A stretch of DNA of 64,000 nucleotides from Octopus sinensis (Eukaryota). The DNA lies in contig NC_043020.1 of the NCBI RefSeq assembly GCF_006345805.1, forward strand, positions 20,770,001 through 20,834,000, in the 5' to 3' direction. The translations under genes were made by a program, and so were the position numbers. Of the stretch, positions 11,095-63,579 are shown in pieces. The notes below the pieces were generated by a model. It did no database searches. It was given only the letters and a program-made list of their open reading frames with translations, and had not been told where the DNA came from. Numbering within the stretch: the first letter of the stretch is position 1; every line of letters begins with the position of its first letter.

Positions 11095-11504
11095 TGTAAT
11101 TTATTTTTGCTATTATGGCTGTAGTCATATTGAAGGGATATCTTCTGTGGTGGCTATTTTATGTTTGCTGTCACTTTTGTTGTTTAACCTTAGAGCAGAG
11201 CGGTGAGAGATGTTGCTCCTCACGGTTTGGTCTTATTGTTTAACCTCAAGTCAGCCTGTAATCAAGGGCATTTCAATCAAGACCATCCATTCATTTTAAA
11301 GTTATGTAAGACTATATTGTCTAATGTATTACTTCCTTAGAGAGCAGTGATTTGATGCCCATTTGAGGCTTGACATTTGAAGAACCATATAGAGAAAATC
11401 TTGTTGGTTATAATATTTCTTGATGGTTGGTATCTAAAATACTTTGCAACCCCTACTTTAGGTAACTAAAAATTAATATTATATTTCATCCACTTATCTT
11501 GTTT

Positions 11505-11546
<42 letters not shown>

Positions 11547-11589
11547 GCGTACATACACTTTGTTCTCTTATATATATATATACATATGC

Positions 11590-13050
11590 CCTTGGATGCC
11601 CTTGGGAGCTCCTCTATGCTGATGACCTTGCTCTAATTGCTGAGTCGCTATCAGAACTGGAGGAGAAGTTTCAGGTGTGGAAACAAGGATTAGAATCGAA
11701 GGGCCTCAGAGTCAATCTAGCTAAAACCAAAGTCGTAATCAGTAGGAAGGTAGACAAATCACAAACACCTTCAGGTAGATGGCCCTGCTCGATCTGTAGA
11801 AAAGGTGTAGGTAGAAACTCTATAAGATGCAAGGGAGAAAAACTAGAAATAGTTGATAGTTTCCGTTACCTAGGTGACCAAGTCAGCAGCGGGGGCGGGT
11901 GTGCTGAAAGTGTAACTGCTAGAGTAAGAATAGCTTGGGCAAAGTTCAGAGAGCTCTTACCTCTGCTGGTGACAAAAGGCCTCTCGCACAGAGTGAAAGG
12001 CAGACTGTATGATGCGTGTGTACGAACAGCCATGCTACATGGCAGTGAAACATGGGCCGTGACTGCTGAGGATATGCGTAAGCTCGCTAGAAATGAAGCC
12101 AGTATGCTCCAATGGATGTGTAATGCCGGTACTCACACTCGGCAGAGTGTAAGTACCTTGAGAGAAAAGCTGGACCTAAGAAGCATCAGTTGTGGTGTGC
12201 AAGAGAGACGTTTGTGCTGGTATGGTCATGTGGCGAGAATGGATGAAGATAGTTGTGTGAAAAAGTGCCACACCCTAGCGGTTGAGGAACCTGTGGAAGA
12301 GGCAGACCCAGGAAAACCTGGGACGAGGTGGTGAAGCACGACCTTCGAACTTTAGGTCTCACTGAGGAAATGACTAGAGACCGAGACCTCTGGAAGTGTG
12401 CTGTGCGCGAGAAGACCCGGCAGGACAAGTGAGTCCATAACCCGTGGCCTTCTACATGGGATGGAGCCAGCCTACGTATGCATACCTTCCCTTCTTGGGA
12501 CACAAAACTCTACTTGTGAAGACGTGATGAGGCAAGTGAGGATCAGAATCGAAATCGATCAATGGAAATTGCGGATGTGCTACCAGTGCCGGTGGCATGT
12601 CAAAACTCTGCTTGTGAAGACCCGTTGAGGCAAGTGACGATCAGAATCGAAATCGATCAATGGAAATCGATCAATGGAAATTGCAGATGTGTTACCAGTG
12701 CCGGTGGCATGTAAGAGAACCTTCCGTTTCGTGACCGTTGCCAGCACCGCCCCGTTTCGTGTCTGTTGCCAGCCTCGCCTGGCCCTCGTGCCGGTGGCAC
12801 ATAAAAAGCACCATCCGTTCATGGCCGTTTGCCAGCTCTGTCTGGCACCAGTGCGGGTGGCACGTAAAAAGCACCCACTACACTCACGGAGTGGTTGGCG
12901 TTAGGAAGGGCATCCAGCCGTAGAAACACTGCCAGATTTGACTGGGCCTGATGAAGCCTTCTGGCTTCACAGACCCCAGTAGAACCGTCCAACCCATGCT
13001 AGCATGGAAAACGGACGCTAAACGATGATGATGATGATGATGATGATGAC
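11590..13050 (+). mobile_element. RTE-clade LINE, 5'-truncated
   Basis: ELLYADDLAL, FRYLG, RLCWYGHVARM; 3'UTR with GGTGGCACGTAAAAAGCACC repeats; (GAT)n tail. Confidence 0.93.
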
Positions 13051-23408: not shown

Positions 23409-25298
23409 TGTTTTATTATTACCCACAAGGGGCGAACATAGATGGGACAATACAATCGGGAAAATGAATAATGAATTATGAAGTTTGTACAATGTCCACT
23501 CGATCCCCGAAATCGAGCGGTTACAATTCGTCATTTGTTTTTTATCGTCAACAATATTTTCCAAATAAAAACATTTTTACATTTTCACATACATTTCAAA
23601 AGTTTTACAAAGTTCAAATCTTTTTTTCAGAATTTAAAGTTTCTTTCATCATTTCCAAATTAAAGTTTTCACAATACCTTTTCTTTTATATATACTCCAT
23701 TATGTCTACCAAATCTGAGTAAACTTCCATCGTTCGAGGCCACCTTGTAAGTCGGCATTTCATATGTTTTGACACGTTCTTGCCAGCTGCCTCGATGAAC
23801 GCCTCGACGTCGTTCTCGCGGACGAGTGCACCTGTTTCTTTCCATTCGGTGCCCATCCTGACCCACGTATATCCATTTGTTACGTTTATTAAATCTTCCA
23901 TCTCCTCACAGTGCCTGTGATGGATCAACGTTCCATAGTATTTGAATTTCTATTCGTACCTACGTTTTCTCTAGTTTTTCTTTAGGACTTACTTCCTCTT
24001 TTTCTCCTCCCTCGGTTTCTCTCTTTCTCTCTTTTTGCTTTCTCTCTTTCTTTTTCCTTTCTTGTCTTTTTGGCTCTTTGTCTGCCGTCTCTCTACCCTG
24101 TGCCTTAAGTTCCTTCCTGTTGTTTCTTTTCTTTTTGCATACCATCTTTTCCTTCTCTTGGTTCTGTTCCTTCTCTTGTTCTTTTCCTGCTTTTCTCTTT
24201 CCTTTAATGTACTTTCCTTTTCTTTCTCTTGCTTCTGCCTTGGCTCCTTCTCCACTACTTCTGCACCCTGTGAATTTGCTCCTTTTCTACTATCTTCTTC
24301 CCTTTGTTTTCATTTTCCTTCAGTGCGCTGTTACTTCCTTCTCTTGTTGTTTCTCCGTTATTTCCTTTTCCTTGTTTTCGCTGTTCTTTCCTTCGTGTTC
24401 GTTTTCCTTCTCTCCACTTTGTGTCTTTTTTGCTCCGCTGTGAATTCATACAGCGGGCATTCCTTTTTTATGTGCCCTCTTGATCCGCACAGGTAGCAAT
24501 TCGGTTTTCTGCCTTCCACTATTACACTAATTGTTTTCTCGTTTTCTATTTCTATTTGGAAGGGAAATCTTTCGATGTCTTCCATTGTGGCCATCAGCCA
24601 CAACTCTACTCCGAATCCCTTCCAATTTACAACGTTCGTCTCCTTAATTGACCCTATTTCTACTTCCTCTTTTGCTGCTCCAATAATGGCTGTTACCAGC
24701 ATTTCTGTTTTAATATCTGGGGGCACCTTTGGGACTCTTACCCGTACCCCTCGTCTTCCTTTATACGTCGGCCACATGGTGAAATTTTCCGCTTTCAGGA
24801 CAGTGGAAGCCAATGAGGCCGCCACTTCCTTTGTTGCGCATCTCACCTCCACCGTACCATATTTCTTTCCTCTGTCTACAAAAGTCGCTTTTTTCATGAT
24901 GTCCCCCAGACGTTTCTCTATTTCTTCAATTGTCACTCTCACCAGTTTTCTCGTGTTTCTATCTTGCGTTCTATACGTTATCGTCTTGTTATTTCTCTCT
25001 TCTATTGTTTCCACAGGCGGGACCAGCTTCACGCTGTCACCCTCCCTTTTGACGAACTTCTCGTATTCCTTCAATTGTTCTTTTCTAAAGAACACTTCTT
25101 TTATTCTAAGAGACTCATCACTTTTTGTTGTGGCGACTCCCGCGTAAGTCTCCATGACTTGAGGGTCGACACACCTTCTATAAAAGGTTCAAACACGCAG
25201 CGGCAAACGCCTCGCGTGATTCAATTTTTTGACAATTTTTTACAGTTTTTTTTTTCCAATTTTCACATACAAAATAACTCACAACACACGTGGGTAGA
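23409..25298 (-). mobile_element. ORF1-only (HAL1-like) non-LTR element of L1/Tx1 type
   Basis: 12-bp TSD TTT(T/C)CTCCATGT at 23397-23408 and 25299-25310; ~140-nt 5'UTR, single ORF1, ~280-nt 3'UTR ending GGGTAATAATAAAACA; no ORF2. Confidence 0.8.
23686..25155 (-). pseudogene. L1/Tx1-type ORF1p with CCHC zinc knuckle; frameshifts in the K/E/R-rich linker
   Basis: 265 open codons including VRVRVPKVPP and VIVEGRKPNCYLCGSRGHIKKEC; continues through shifted frames to ..SDLVDIMEYI*. Confidence 0.78.
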
Positions 25299-26314: not shown

Positions 26315-26701
26315 TAGATTTGATTTGTCCTCATCAGCTGCATATACCTTGACAAAATTTCAAATGTTGCCACATCTATGGCAGTACACTCGTCTGAATA
26401 CCAAAACGTTAACAGAACGAGAACAGTGAAGAAGTTTCAATGAAAATAGTAATGCAATTCAAAAGTATTGCTTTCCAGTAAAAGATAGCCCGTAAGGGTA
26501 AAATTATACATATAAAAGTAAATAAATGGTACAACGAAGTACCGATATTTACTGGAAAATAGCGATTGTAATAAATACGATGCTATTGTATAGCTTCACT
26601 GCGTATATACTAGCAAAGACGTGTGTGTGCAACAAACATGAAGAAAATTTGTCTTACCTCTAGGAAGAACATCTGAAAAATGAAAAACCTAGAAATGGAT
26701 A

Positions 26702-26772
26702 ATGCAGGACCGGTTTCAGACTCTTCAAATACGTTTGACAACGTAGATTTGATTTGTCCTCATCAGCTGCAT
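26702..26772 (-). ncRNA. type I hammerhead ribozyme, intact core
   Basis: Minus strand: ATGCAG-CTGATGA-GGAC[hairpin]GTCT-GAAA-CCGG-TC-CTGCAT. Confidence 0.9.
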
Positions 26773-27130
26773 ATACCTAGACAAAATTTCAAATGTTGCC
26801 ACATCTATGCCAGTACACTCATCTGAACGCCAAAACATTAACAGAACGAGAACAGTGAAGAAGTTTCAATGAAAATAGTAATGCAATACGAAAGTATTGC
26901 TTTCCAGTAAAAGATAGCCCGTAAGGGTAAAATTATACATATAAAAGTAAATAAATGGTACAACGAAGTACCGATATTTACTGGAAAATAGCGATTGTAA
27001 TAAATACGACGCTATTGTATAGCTTCACTGCGTATATACTAGCAAAGACGTGTGTGTGCAACAAACATGAAGAAAATTTGTCTTACCTCTAGGAAGAACA
27101 TCTGAAAAATGAAAAACCTAGAAATGGATA

Positions 27131-27201
27131 ATGCAGGACCGGTTTTAGACTCTTCAAATACGTTTGACAATGTAGATTTGATTTGTCCTCATCAGCTGCA
27201 T
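27131..27201 (-). ncRNA. type I hammerhead ribozyme with G12A core substitution
   Basis: As 26702-26772 but GAAA reads AAAA (position 27146). Confidence 0.8.
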
Positions 27202-27389
27202 ATATATATATATCATCATCATCATCATCGTCATTTAACGTCCACTTTGCATGCTAGCATTGGTTAGACGATTTGACTGAGGACTGGCAAACCAGATGGC
27301 TGCACCAGGCTCCAGTCTGATCTGGCAGAGTTTCTACAGCTAGATGCCCTTCCTAACACCAACCACTCCAAGAGTTCTTTAGGTGTAGT

Positions 27390-29700
27390 AATTCTTTATA
27401 CATTTCTTGGCCTAGAGCAATTCTCTTTTTCACTAGAGTGCTGAGAATTTACATGAGCTTAAGATAAAGCATCAGCTGTGCAATTATTGGGGCTCTTGAC
27501 ATAATGAATATCGACAGCAAACCGTGCCTAATTTCCCTTCGAAAATATTTATCCAATTTGGATTGAAATTCCATTTTGTTCCTCATCCTTCTTCCATGAA
27601 ACATATTTGATGTCACATTTCTACTGGTCACAAAGCTCAGTTTTGTTCACTCTTCACAATTTATTTCAAATGGAAGTTGCAGCATTGGAAAAGCTCATTT
27701 CAACTTCATTCATTTGGTCAGATATGAACAGGAATGTTTGTCAATGGATAGGAATTATATATCAAGTTTATTGTTATGAAACTTTCTTAGGAACTTTTGC
27801 TACACTGGACACTTATTTTCAACACATACACATAGATATTATTAGACCCTTATCTCCTGTTCTGGATTATATTTAACTGTTGATTAGTATTAATTGTTCC
27901 TTTAGGTGACCTAAAGCCATTCCTATTTAAGATGTTTCATCTACAATGGTAACAAAAGTATTATGTTTCACCTGGATTTCATATTTTGGGACTCCAGCAA
28001 CAATGACAATTGACAGAGGTCAGCGATTTGAATCTAGTCTGTTTACTGAATTAACCCAATAGATTGTTACAAAGAGGATTCACATAATTGCTTAGCATCC
28101 TGTATGGAATGAGAGAACAATTTCATAACCAATTTAATACATCATTTAACACATACAGCAAGGTCAGAATATATATCTATTATACTACTGAGTAACACAA
28201 TATCAATTAAGACAGACTTAGATTTGACTCCAGCAGAACTGCTTTACAGCACTGCATTAACTCTTCATGAACAAATGGTAGTTGAAGAATCCATCACGTT
28301 ACACTCCATCCAATTATGTACAATAACTGCATTTACATCTGAGTTTATCAAAATTACTGCCCAGACAGCAAACAGTTAGGCTATGTTTCATATGTTTCAA
28401 CTGACTTTACTACTTGGACTCATATTTTTGATTGTAATGATATAGTGCAAAAGCCCTTACACACACCATATACTACACTTTATTATGTTATGCAGGAACA
28501 CCATAACGCAACTAATTAGGGAGAGAGTCAGTCTAGATGAGATGCAGTTTGAGTTTGTGACAGGGAAAAGCACCACTGATGCTATATTTTTGGTAAGACA
28601 GCTGCAGGAGAAATACCTAGCCAAAGAAAAACCTTTGTACTTGGCTTTCATTGACGTGGAGAAAGCCTTTGACAGGGTCCCCCAATCCCTTATCTAGTGG
28701 AAACTAGGGATAGATGAGTGGTTAGTGAGAGCTGTATGAGCCATGTACAGGGACACTGTTAGTAAGGTGAGGGATGGCAATGAGTACAGCAAATAATTCT
28801 GGGTAGGAGAGGCAGTCTATTAAGGATCAGTCCTCAGCTCTGTGATGTGGTGGTGAAGCATGACCTTTGAACGTTGGACTCCACTGAGGCGATGACAAGT
28901 GACCAAGACCTTTGGAGATATTCTGTGCTTGAGAAGACCCAGCAAACCAAGTGAGACTGTAACCGTGGCTTATGCCAGTGCAGCATAACCAACCCATTTA
29001 AGAGTATCCTACAATCATTGGGAAATAAACTGCACTTGTGAAGACCTGTTGAGGCAAGTGAATTCATTGTTGTGGCTGATGACAGTACCGAATGTACCAT
29101 TCAAGCTTGGTCGATGCCAGTGCTGGCTGACTGGTCCTGTGCTGGTGGCATGTAAAAAGCACCATTCAAGTGTGGTCGTTGCCAGTGCCACCTGACTGGC
29201 CCCCATGCCAGTGGCACGTAAAAAGCACCATTCAAGTGTAGCCGATGCCAGTACCACCTTACTGGCCCTCATGCAGTTGGCACATAAAAAGCACCCACTA
29301 CATTCTCAGAGTGGTTGGCATTAGGAAGGGCATCCAGATGTAGAAACATTGCCAGATCAGACTGGAGCCTGGTGCAGCCTTCTGGCTTGCCAGCCCTCAG
29401 TCAAACCATCCAACCCATGCCAGCATGGAAAGTGGATGGTAAACAATGATGATGATGATGGCGATGATACCAATAGTAAAAAAGAGACAGTTAATATTGA
29501 CAGAATTAAAATAAAAGCTTACATTCATTTACATACATCTACAAGGGCACATCTTCACATATAACAAAAAAACAACTATGGATACACAGGCACCATCAAT
29601 ACACAAAGCTATGGTTCCTAAAAAAGACATTACTATGAAAAATGGCAAGAAGGTGCATTGGCCTACCAAGTATGAACTTATAAATTATATATAATACTAT
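27390..29700 (+). mobile_element. decayed Gypsy integrase region, interrupted by an RTE copy
   Basis: FIWSDMNRNV, FQHIHIDIIRPL, FGTPATMTIDRGQRFESSLF; resumes after 29465 with NGKKVHWP. Confidence 0.7.
28490..29465 (+). mobile_element. RTE LINE, internally deleted
   Basis: STTDAIFLVRQLQEKYL..AFIDVEKAFDRVP joined to a 3'UTR with ~62-bp repeats and (GAT)n tail. Confidence 0.9.
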
Positions 29701-47835: not shown

Positions 47836-49645
47836 GGCAAATGAAAGATGGAAGATGGAATATACGAGAATTTATTAATCATGACAAATGTTTCGACACA
47901 TTTAGCATCGATTCCTCATGGGTGGGACACTCAACAACTGGTTCAGGGGCATCTGGAGGTGCAGATGTATCTCATCCGGTGATAGATAGACACAACTTGT
48001 GAAAATAATAGTTCCGCAATGTAACTTCTTGTTTTGTAGAAAGAAAAGCAGCCAGACTGAGGAAATATCTTCATTTGCATAGAAAATCAAAAGTTAAATC
48101 ACAGATGGAAAAAAGAGAAATGAACATGCAATACAGAGATAAAAGTATTAAAAATAACTGTTAACAAATATGGATGTATAAATGCCCACAGGCAAGCTGC
48201 ATGGTGCGAGTACAATTCGCTCATACAAGCATGTGCAAAAATGTGAGCATACGCACACGTGAGGTTTGGTGCATCATGATCACAAAGCAAGTTAACTATC
48301 TACTTGGTGTTTGTAAGAAGGGGGAAGTTAAAAGTAAACTTAAGCCATTTACACCTTAAAGTAAATAAATTTTAACAGTGACTCAAAATTCATTCCCACT
48401 GCATTGTGCGAATGTACATTTATATCTGTGTAGGCATCTCGAGAGTCTTTCAGAAATTCTATTAATGATCTTCTCATAGAAGACAGGGATTCCTCAGAGC
48501 AGAGATAGCATCTCCTGGAAATTATATTGCATGGTTTCACATGCCTTACTCTGAATCATGTTATGCTGTACTTCATTTTATCTTCCTTCAGTTGCCGTAC
48601 AAAATCAGCCAAAGATGTTAAATGTCTCTTATTGATTGTCTTAAAGCTGGCGACATGGTTATGATAATGATTCTTAAATGAATCAGCCATCTGCCCAATG
48701 TAAACATACGACCCCCCTCTTGTGAGCATGGTACATTTTTATACAAGACTTGTACTCATACAGTGATTCATCAATGGACATTTTGATTTTTCTCTGCATA
48801 AGCATTTATCATATTTATTTGTATATAAGGCAGTCCCAACTCCATTTACCGACATTGTTACCATGTTAGCTGTATCATAAGTATTTCTATTATTATGATT
48901 TGGCAGTAATTGGTGTTCGTCATTGTGGTTTACACCTCCTTGGTTAGTATTTAGATACGTATGTTTGTTAGATCCAGTAGGTGGGTTATTGAACCTTTGT
49001 TGCATTTTGGTATTGTTTATGCGATGCATAAGCTGCTCTAAATTAGCAAAGTTGTTTTTGGATACCTTCATGGTGTGCTGATTAAAGATATGATACCGAT
49101 TAGATTTAGGAAAACATTTGTCCAAAGCAGCAAAAAATTTTCCAGCGATCTTGATTGAAACATGCGAATCGAAAATCTGGTTGAACCAAAGTATATCCTG
49201 ATTCCTTTATCTGTTGTTAGGCTTATTTAATCAAGTGTATCGTACAGGATTGGAACAAGCAGTTGGATTATTATGTAGTTCATCAACATGACCAATTCTT
49301 CCTGGCCTGTATTCTCTATGTGAGTGAGTTCTCAAACTGTGATGTTGTGCAATGTGTATTACAATTGGAGGAATTACCAGTGTTATGTATATCTGCTTCT
49401 TGTATTTATTGAATTTTTTCAGATACCCAGCCCCAGCTAGAGCAGCATTATAATAAGTTGCACGTGATGCAAAAATTTTATAATTAGTGGACAATCTAGA
49501 AATTCTTGTAGAAATATTCTTAATTAAACCCTGTATTACTGAGGGTGGATGGTTGGATGCTACGATAATGTACTTAATATGATCATTTTGCTTATAATGA
49601 TCTAGTATCATAATAATGATCCAGGTTCAAATAATCCAGTATCAA
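47836..49645 (-). mobile_element. Penelope-like element, 5'-truncated (RT thumb, Cys linker, GIY-YIG, terminal repeat)
   Basis: YIIVASNHPPSV..ISTRISRLS..YNAAL..AGY; ILWFNQ; CLCREKSKCPLMNHC; YVYIGQM; RCYLCSEE. Confidence 0.88.
47878..47983 (-). ncRNA. degenerate hammerhead ribozyme in the PLE terminal repeat
   Basis: Minus strand: ATCAC-CGGATGA-GATACAT..ATGTGTC-GAAA-CATTTG-TC-ATGAT; U4G change in core. Confidence 0.7.
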
Positions 49646-62287: not shown

Positions 62288-63579
62288 CGAGGGACGTTCA
62301 ATAAGTAATACCCCTGACCCACTTGCAGTTATTTGGTCTAGCCGAAATTTCGCATGTGCAATTATTGATATGTCTATAGATTAAGTGGCAAATTACAGCT
62401 CTGAACTAATTGTGGTTTCTGATTTACAGGTGTTTGAACTGAGTCAAGTGTAAAATGGAGCCTGTTGAGTGTCGAGCAGTGATCCGGTTTTTGTATTTGA
62501 AAGGACGCACACCACGGGAGACTTTTGATGAAATGAAAGTAACTTATGGTGATGATGCCCCATCATATGACCTTGTAAAACGCTGGCATCGTGAAATCAG
62601 ACATGGTCGGAACTCCGTAGTAACAGCTCCCAGATCTGGTCGCCCTCTTCTGCCATTGATGAGGCATCTGTCTGTCAAGTTGAGGCTGCCATTTTGGAAG
62701 ATCGACGCATAACTATTCGCCAAATAGCCTATGAGGTCAAGATTAGTAACGGGTCTGTGGAAACTATCATTCATGACCATTTGTATATGCAAAAGGTGTC
62801 TGCCTGATGGATTTCCAGGTTGCTCACACCTTTCCAGAAGCAAGAACGAGTCGAGTGGTCAAGGATGAATTTGGAGATGTGCCAAGAAGATGAGTCAAAA
62901 TTTTTCAAAAGACTGATTACACAGGATGAAACCTGGGTCCATCACTATGATGCAGAGACCAAAGCCCAGTCAATGCAGTGGAAGCACCATGACTCACCTC
63001 CTCCAAAGAAGGCAAAGGTGCAGCCCTCCGCTGGTAAGGTCATGCTCACAGTCTTCTGGGACCAGAACGGAGTAGTGATGACAGATTTCCTGGCAAAGGG
63101 TACGACGATTACAGGAGCCTATTATGCTTCACTTTTGAGGAAATTAAGAGAAGCTATCAAAATCAAGAGGTAGGGCAAGATCAGCAAAGGCATTGTCCTC
63201 CTGCAGGACAACGCTCCGGTCCACAACTCGCGTATCGCCAGATCAGAAGCACAGGCGTGCGGCTATGAACTCATCCTCCATCCCTCCTACTCTCCTGACC
63301 TTGCACCCTCTGATTTTCACCTCTTCCCAGCCATGAAGTTGTTTTTGAAAGGAAAGCGTTTCCCAGATGATGCAGCCTTGATTTCTGAAGTCACGTCGTG
63401 GTTGGAGGACCAAGCTGGGGTCTTCTACAAAAACGGTCTCCAGCGCTGCATCAAACGATGGGAGAAGTGCGTAACTCTGGGTGGTTTCTATGTAGAAAAA
63501 GACTAATAACTGTGCCAAGTTTCGTTGCTCTACTGCTATGGGAAGTGGGTCAGGGGCATTACTTATTGAACGCCCCTCG
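62288..63579 (+). mobile_element. mariner DNA transposon, full length, inactivated (family A)
   Basis: TA TSDs and TIRs; ORF 62455-63506 with TQDETW, LQDNAPVH, YSPDLAPSDFHLF (D,D34D type); frameshift at ~62645 and stops at ~62805 and ~63171. Confidence 0.96.

Follow-up and report, generated by a model that had tools for sequence, protein, structure and literature searches.

Metazoan non-LTR retrozymes, as described for coral, mussel and axolotl (Cervera & de la Pena, PMC7229834), are low-GC, non-coding tandem units of 150-450 bp that carry a type I hammerhead ribozyme (HHR), occur in hundreds of copies and are proposed to be mobilized by Penelope-like elements (PLEs). The 429-nt repeat family of Octopus sinensis that we report here is like them in each of these features and, at the level of its sequence, is a non-LTR retrozyme in the sense of that study. 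Li, Clavereau & Pollet (2026; 10.64898/2026.07.22.740005) add co-occurrence of retrozymes with EN+ PLEs and a proposed SINE/LINE-like dependence on them, both of which have a counterpart in the octopus family. The class, animal retrozymes, is already known, and the family is not a new kind of element. Among the papers listed in the open-access literature on octopus or cephalopod retrozymes, hammerheads and Penelope/Neptune elements, none deals with the family, which the supplements of both studies may list; the main text of PMC7229834 mentions neither octopus nor cephalopods, and its supplement may include such species.

PLE insertions, as outlined by Craig et al., comprise partial tandems, inverted 5' copies and a one-sided tail, with a bias towards (TA)n. 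Work on the Poseidon element PAc (Frangieh et al. 2024, PMC11167929) describes the tail as the stretch between two internal RT start sites, with both target strands primed. Like the EN+ PLEs PAc and Neptune, the octopus family has two putative internal RT start sites that bound a tail, and it further resembles the EN+ PLEs of that study in its inverted 5' arms, partial tandems, AT-rich targets and a HHR shortly upstream of the starts.

The window locus

The window is a stretch of 64,000 nt from contig NC_043020.1, and the features of the family copy within it are collected in Table 1, with monomer positions numbered so that nt 1 is the base after the cut. The original prediction, made from the letters of the window, described two near-identical 429-bp units and a partial third; TRF recovers the same arrangement (period 429, 2.1 copies, 97%), and a comparison of the two units shows 11 differences in 429 positions. 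Each unit junction encodes on its minus strand the type I HHR that had been proposed, with a 6-bp stem I, CTGATGA, stem II, GAAA, a palindromic ACCGGT stem III and C17. Stem II is long, at 42 nt including its loop. The CTGATGA cores start on the minus strand at 27195, 26766 and 26337. As predicted, the core with C17 at 26708 is intact, with GAAA present, and that with C17 at 27137 carries G12A at 27146; the third consists of the 5' half only. The unit has a GC content of 35%, and its longest stop-free stretch in six frames is 57 aa.

Table 1. Features of the family copy in the window, and Neptune-type reading frames elsewhere in the genome
Feature	Position	Strand	Evidence
Whole insertion, 2.07 head-to-tail 429-bp units (nt 362-429, 1-429, 1-393)	26315..27204	-	TRF, unit comparison
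Cut-to-cut monomer, 429 nt, 35% GC, branched rod fold	26708..27136	-	predicted fold
Upstream type I hammerhead, G12A (27146), C17 at 27137	27131..27201	-	motif and sub-threshold Hammerhead_HH9
Intact type I hammerhead: 6-bp stem I, long stem II, ACCGGT stem III, C17 at 26708	26702..26772	-	motif and sub-threshold Hammerhead_HH9
Third hammerhead, 5' half; atypical truncated 3' end (nt 393)	26315..26343	-	motif; such an end in 0/85 loci
Family end site A: nt 195-203, TA-like, mostly unpaired region; main fixed 3' end of other copies	26934..26942, again 26505-26513	-	locus ends; loose contig ends at 26934
65-nt 'tail', nt 204-268, between end sites A and B (B = nt 262-269)	26869..26933, again 26440-26504	-	locus ends
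(TA)n run at 5' junction, overlaps TATATG of element	27200..27213	.	sequence
Intact Neptune-type ORFs, 775-781 aa	L117-L126, e.g. L119:2032-4374, L123:3745-6069	+ (L119), - (L123)	domain matches

The window copy starts within a (TA)n run at nt 362 and stops at nt 393. Because an end at nt 393 is absent from all 85 loci sampled below, the 3' part of this copy was probably lost after insertion. The two cores of a double hammerhead cut each other's sites, so that G12A would likely silence the site at 26708 rather than that of the core that carries it. With one G12A core, only one site would be cuttable in cis, and the window copy is likely no source locus; this agrees with the earlier expectation that the locus is unlikely to release a monomer itself. 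Taking the G12A core and the lost 3' end together, the copy is likely a dead-end product.

No host gene near the element was evident by eye among the open frames of the window. By the same means, we take the open frames at 24358-25188 (-), 11477-12334 (+), 62808-63506 (+) and 48739-49626 (-) to resemble, respectively, a gag-like zinc-knuckle protein, a LINE RT fragment, a mariner transposase and a PLE-type fragment. Two inverted copies of a short, highly abundant repeat with an (ATG)n/(CAT)n end adjoin the element (27212-27373 and 29304-29465).

Ribozyme matches and predicted fold

In the proposed Rfam search, the window element has no match at gathering score, and Hammerhead_HH9 matches both junctions below threshold (E=0.00038 at 26688-26780; E=0.015 at 27114-27213). 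On the plus strand, we found no CTGANGA core in the unit and no ribozyme family at E<=10 in the element. Folded as a circle, the monomer reaches -123 kcal/mol, against -80 (sd 5.3) for 60 dinucleotide shuffles (z -8.1); the linear monomer gives z -7.2 against the same number of shuffles, and 62% of the monomer is paired. The predicted rod is branched and bears several side hairpins, and all four self-complementary pairs named in the original prediction lie within its helices. Of the description "rod-like, viroid-like", the rod holds (z -7 to -8), whereas viroid likeness is weakened by the branching and by the lack of an opposite-strand CTGANGA core. Hammerhead viroids and viroid-like circular RNAs (circRNAs) are similar to the family in size, high self-complementarity and a predicted dimer-only hammerhead; the family differs from the viroids in being genome-encoded and retrotransposed, with a core in one polarity and a branched, AT-rich fold. 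The family is neither an autonomous PLE nor strictly viroid-like.

In the circular monomer, stems I and II form at high probability and stem III has a pair probability of 0.0, an instability expected of dimer-only metazoan hammerheads (PMC4209133). When we forced the ACCGGU palindromes of the array to pair with each other, the fold cost about 6 kcal/mol and stem I was swapped between copies. The longest stretches of the monomer that are predicted to be unpaired contain or adjoin both end sites. The rod helices outside the ribozyme are conserved, and among 40 natural monomers they show one-sided changes, with no compensatory change common to more than one sequence. We accordingly dropped covariation of this part of the rod as a line of evidence, and the predicted rod draws its support mainly from its z-score.

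Family size and selection on the ribozyme

A 23-mer of the unit has 457 exact matches in the genome, which bears out the suggestion that this is a multi-copy family with the architecture of non-LTR retrozymes, one type I HHR per 429-bp unit in hundreds of copies. A pattern for intact long-stem-II cores finds 473 in the genome and one in the control. Other families account for eight of the first 100 in the list, so that the 473 are mostly members of the 429-nt family. A first-look search of the 2.72 Gb genome returned 1932 candidates, 40 of them scored, a figure that is not a copy number. Full units are 85-97% identical to the window copy, and contigs from sequencing runs under three species labels cover the whole monomer.

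In loci chosen without any HHR pattern, core positions vary in 3 of 633 cells, compared with 1314 of 24321 in other non-CpG columns. In a separate count, catalytic cores are intact in 65 of 70 cases. Double compensatory changes occur in stem I (two pairs, each in 6 of 40 sequences) and in stem II (in 13, 2 and 6 of 40). Because the core is nearly invariant and compensatory changes are confined to stems I and II, the sequences indicate that the ribozyme is under selection across subfamilies. Family members with two or three intact cores exist; those with two consecutive intact HHRs, which Li et al. take as "active", include L006, L007, L011, L021, L095 and L096, and the window copy, with G12A, is not among them.

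In one sublineage (L247-L259), seen as 13 matches that fall in 10 loci, six nucleotides are duplicated precisely at the cut site. In its three complete examples stem III becomes a 4-bp hairpin with a pair probability of about 0.6, and we predict that with this duplication a monomeric ribozyme would be active. Another hammerhead family, unrelated to the first and with units of about 540 nt (L155-L158, L132, L134), likewise has an ACCGGT stem III, a long stem II, TA-rich ends and inverted arms, with no Neptune match in L155-L158. Further distinct hammerhead-like motifs occur at L135, where the motif sits in a tandem of about 360 nt, and at L136, L131, L137, L138, L100, L121 and L123.

Insertion ends

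We determined the ends of 85 loci. They come from the first 100 occurrences of the 23-mer along the genome, a sample without length bias. Among 59 simple copies, 72-789 bp long, the 3' end falls at nt 190-212 in 52 and at nt 258-271 in seven, whereas 5' ends are scattered, as in variable truncation. The remaining 26 of the 85 loci have inverted arms; in 23 of these one arm ends at about nt 203 and the other at about nt 265 (the exceptions are L186, L232 and L237), and in none do both arms end with the tail. Of 110 such ends, 86 have a TA-like run next to them. The same pattern holds in a previous sample that overlaps this one in part (79 loci, 17 duplicates having been dropped; 15 of 18 inverted loci) and in 16 loci of divergent subfamilies. 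Similarly, contigs assembled from DNA runs have loose ends at the nt-203 site (26934). The original prediction had proposed a check for permuted start points; the ends prove not to be freely permuted and cluster at two fixed 3' positions 65 nt apart.

If the two sites were chosen independently at the 52:7 ratio, 21% of inverted loci would be expected to have one of each; the count is 23 of the 24 that can be classified, which suggests that the two sites are used in a coupled fashion. We infer that end site A (nt 195-203) is an RT start. A fixed 3' end, a one-sided tail, an inverted 5' arm and a microsatellite target are all present, and the mode of insertion, which the original prediction had missed, is, as judged from these end sequences, Penelope-type. 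We considered L1-style twin priming; by eye, the 5' ends of inverted arms and simple copies do not differ clearly. TA microhomology is seen at 6 of 26 5' junctions, against 13% expected (p 0.10). A footprint of A-to-I editing was looked for and rejected, with 20 locus-private A>G against 41 T>C changes (p 0.24) and no hyperedited copy. At L091 (G000:C4:114663600-114665000), a truncated insertion with its flank is locally triplicated in nearly identical form at a spacing of about 525 bp.

A candidate coding partner

A genome search for GIY-YIG domains gave 147 matches among the 150 scored of 5029 candidates. Intact Neptune-type RT-endonuclease ORFs of 781 and 775 aa are present elsewhere in the genome (Table 1), with RVT_1 just below and GIY-YIG above the cut-off. 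Elements of the 781-aa family have a (TA)n end, an optional tail of about 35 nt, a variant hammerhead core (TTGATAA) about 80 nt before the 3' end and an upstream 479-aa open frame. The 429-nt monomer has no significant similarity to 34 GIY-YIG loci (best E 0.22), a comparison that samples the PLE families in part. Neptune protein matches are found at 4 of 79 family loci and, within about 4 kb upstream, at 0 of 16 divergent-subfamily loci; there is no fixed link. At L072, a Neptune-type element of the 775-aa family has (TA)n at its 3' end, and a copy of the 429-nt family lies directly against this run with its 3' end, a junction consistent with a target common to both elements. We take a Neptune-type RT-endonuclease to be the likely mover of the family.

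The RNA template

Priming 203 nt downstream of the cut means that a linear cut monomer can give at most 203-268 nt. Of the 62 arms that extend to the cut site, 56 continue past it, and 14 of 93 are longer than one unit (one arm did not align, and one duplicated locus is counted twice). Six of the 62 have 5' ends near the cut (-10 to +7), three of them exactly at nt 1, which is not significant by bin (p 0.33).

In 64 of 65 tandem pairs, which are not independent of one another, the units of an insertion diverge less than the median between loci (3.5% compared with 9.2%). Across 27 insertions, 149 of 337 minor-allele cells are common to the units of one insertion, compared with 53 (maximum 93) in 500 permutations. 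Twelve locus-private alleles are present in both units, at 8 of the 27 loci, and none of 164 columns is position-specific (best raw p 0.051). Given the strong truncation of copies, each tandem must have been rebuilt from a single unit, as would be possible with a circle or with a jump across the nick. Together, read-through of the cut and private variants common to units favour, at the level of sequence comparison, a circular or re-copied template; part of the identity within loci could come from homogeneous donors or later gene conversion. Regeneration of tandems from such a template has been proposed for retrozymes by Cervera & de la Pena (PMC7229834). Contigs from runs that we guess to be RNA cover the element, and such contigs cannot show strand, ends or circles.

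Discussion

We are confident that the family is a PLE-mobilized retrozyme, which fits the view of retrozymes as non-autonomous PLE derivatives (10.64898/2026.07.22.740005). On balance we favour the fuller account, a non-coding hammerhead repeat with PLE insertion ends that is moved by a Neptune-type RT-endonuclease and whose RNA is likely circular. Loci with at least two intact ribozymes would be transcribed, and the ribozymes would cut as a dimer through the ACCGGU palindrome. A host ligase would close the monomer, and the circle, lacking stem III, would resist re-cutting. The PLE protein would then nick (TA)n and prime inside the RNA at about nt 203; in inverted copies the second strand would be primed at about nt 265, giving the 65-nt tail. 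The RT would copy across the former cut site, in some cases making more than one circuit, and so regenerate tandems.

More tentatively, the 429-nt ribozyme-made circRNA may be a minimal complete Penelope substrate, with a dimeric Neptune RT-endonuclease holding one RNA at two sites 65 nt apart, one per nicked strand, and copying round the circle across the ligated cut. The basis for reading one site per strand is that 23 of 26 inverted insertions have one of each end and none has the tail twice. Alternatively, the same non-autonomous PLE parasite could be copied from a linear template, either an uncut or partly cut multimer or a cut monomer with template jumping; the sole function of the ribozyme would then be to release or process the RNA, and covalent closure would not be needed. 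This agrees with the PAc system, in which cleavage is dispensable in vitro and unprocessed RNA is the main substrate (PMC11167929), with the instability of stem III in the monomer, which would make cutting partial, and with the arms that start exactly at the cut and several long copies, from a set selected for length, that begin at nt 1-7. Pure linear copying would, however, shorten arrays in each generation, given the 5' truncation and the few arms longer than one unit, and subfamilies of 85-97% identity each keep homogeneous tandems, in which private alleles recur in both units and no variant is tied to a position. We think a linear template rather unlikely.

A coding PLE whose body escaped notice, with the unit as its pseudo-LTR and nothing more, is a possibility raised together with the original prediction. 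It would account for insertion features that are all PLE-like, in a genome with intact Neptune-type elements; in Xenopus, Li et al. matched 24 of 57 retrozyme families to 22 TEs, of which 21 were PLEs, with the matches at PLE termini (10.64898/2026.07.22.740005). In the 79-locus set and the 16 divergent-subfamily loci, however, no ORF with RT and GIY-YIG is attached to the unit. Copies of more than one unit always continue into another unit (up to 3.2, at L095), simple loci have no 5' junction in common, Neptune matches are as scarce as given above, and at L072 the family copy meets the (TA)n 3' end of the Neptune copy by its own 3' end. We regard a missed coding body as quite improbable, and we give almost no credence to a satellite spread by unequal crossing-over of DNA with an incidental ribozyme-like motif. 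Tandem organization and the one locally triplicated insertion would suit such a satellite, but the copies are short and dispersed over many large contigs, and their fixed ends and covarying ribozyme largely refute it.

Within its class, the family shares with the axolotl retrozyme a HHR that depends on a dimer, as predicted here. It differs from the metazoan non-LTR retrozymes described in PMC7229834 in its long stem II and in its dispersed copies, from less than a unit to 1.5 units rather than arrays; fixed PLE-type ends and a tail are documented in the octopus family, and circRNA, a prediction for the octopus family, has been shown for those retrozymes. Compared with the EN+ PLEs of PMC11167929, the family has no ORF, a tail of 65 nt rather than 30-40 and a canonical rather than minimal HHR core. 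Its start sites resemble the (TA)n target, unlike those of PAc.

The published case for PLE-moved animal retrozymes consists of a common ribozyme type, co-occurrence and pLTR homology, the last two established by Li et al. (10.64898/2026.07.22.740005) across 35 genomes of vertebrates, insects and a coral. The evidence here is the structure of insertion ends: in the 429-nt family, the ends themselves carry the PLE signature, in an unusually clear insertion record. The ribozyme is selected although the one in vitro PLE system can do without cleavage, so its importance must lie in another step. If the two-site circular reaction is true, PLE tails, inverted arms and partial tandems would all come from one reaction, and the hammerhead would be given a role in vivo. 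With a short non-coding substrate and intact Neptune-type ORFs in one genome, PLE transposition becomes directly testable, including the role of the hammerhead, the choice between circle and multimer, and the origin of the tail and the inversions.
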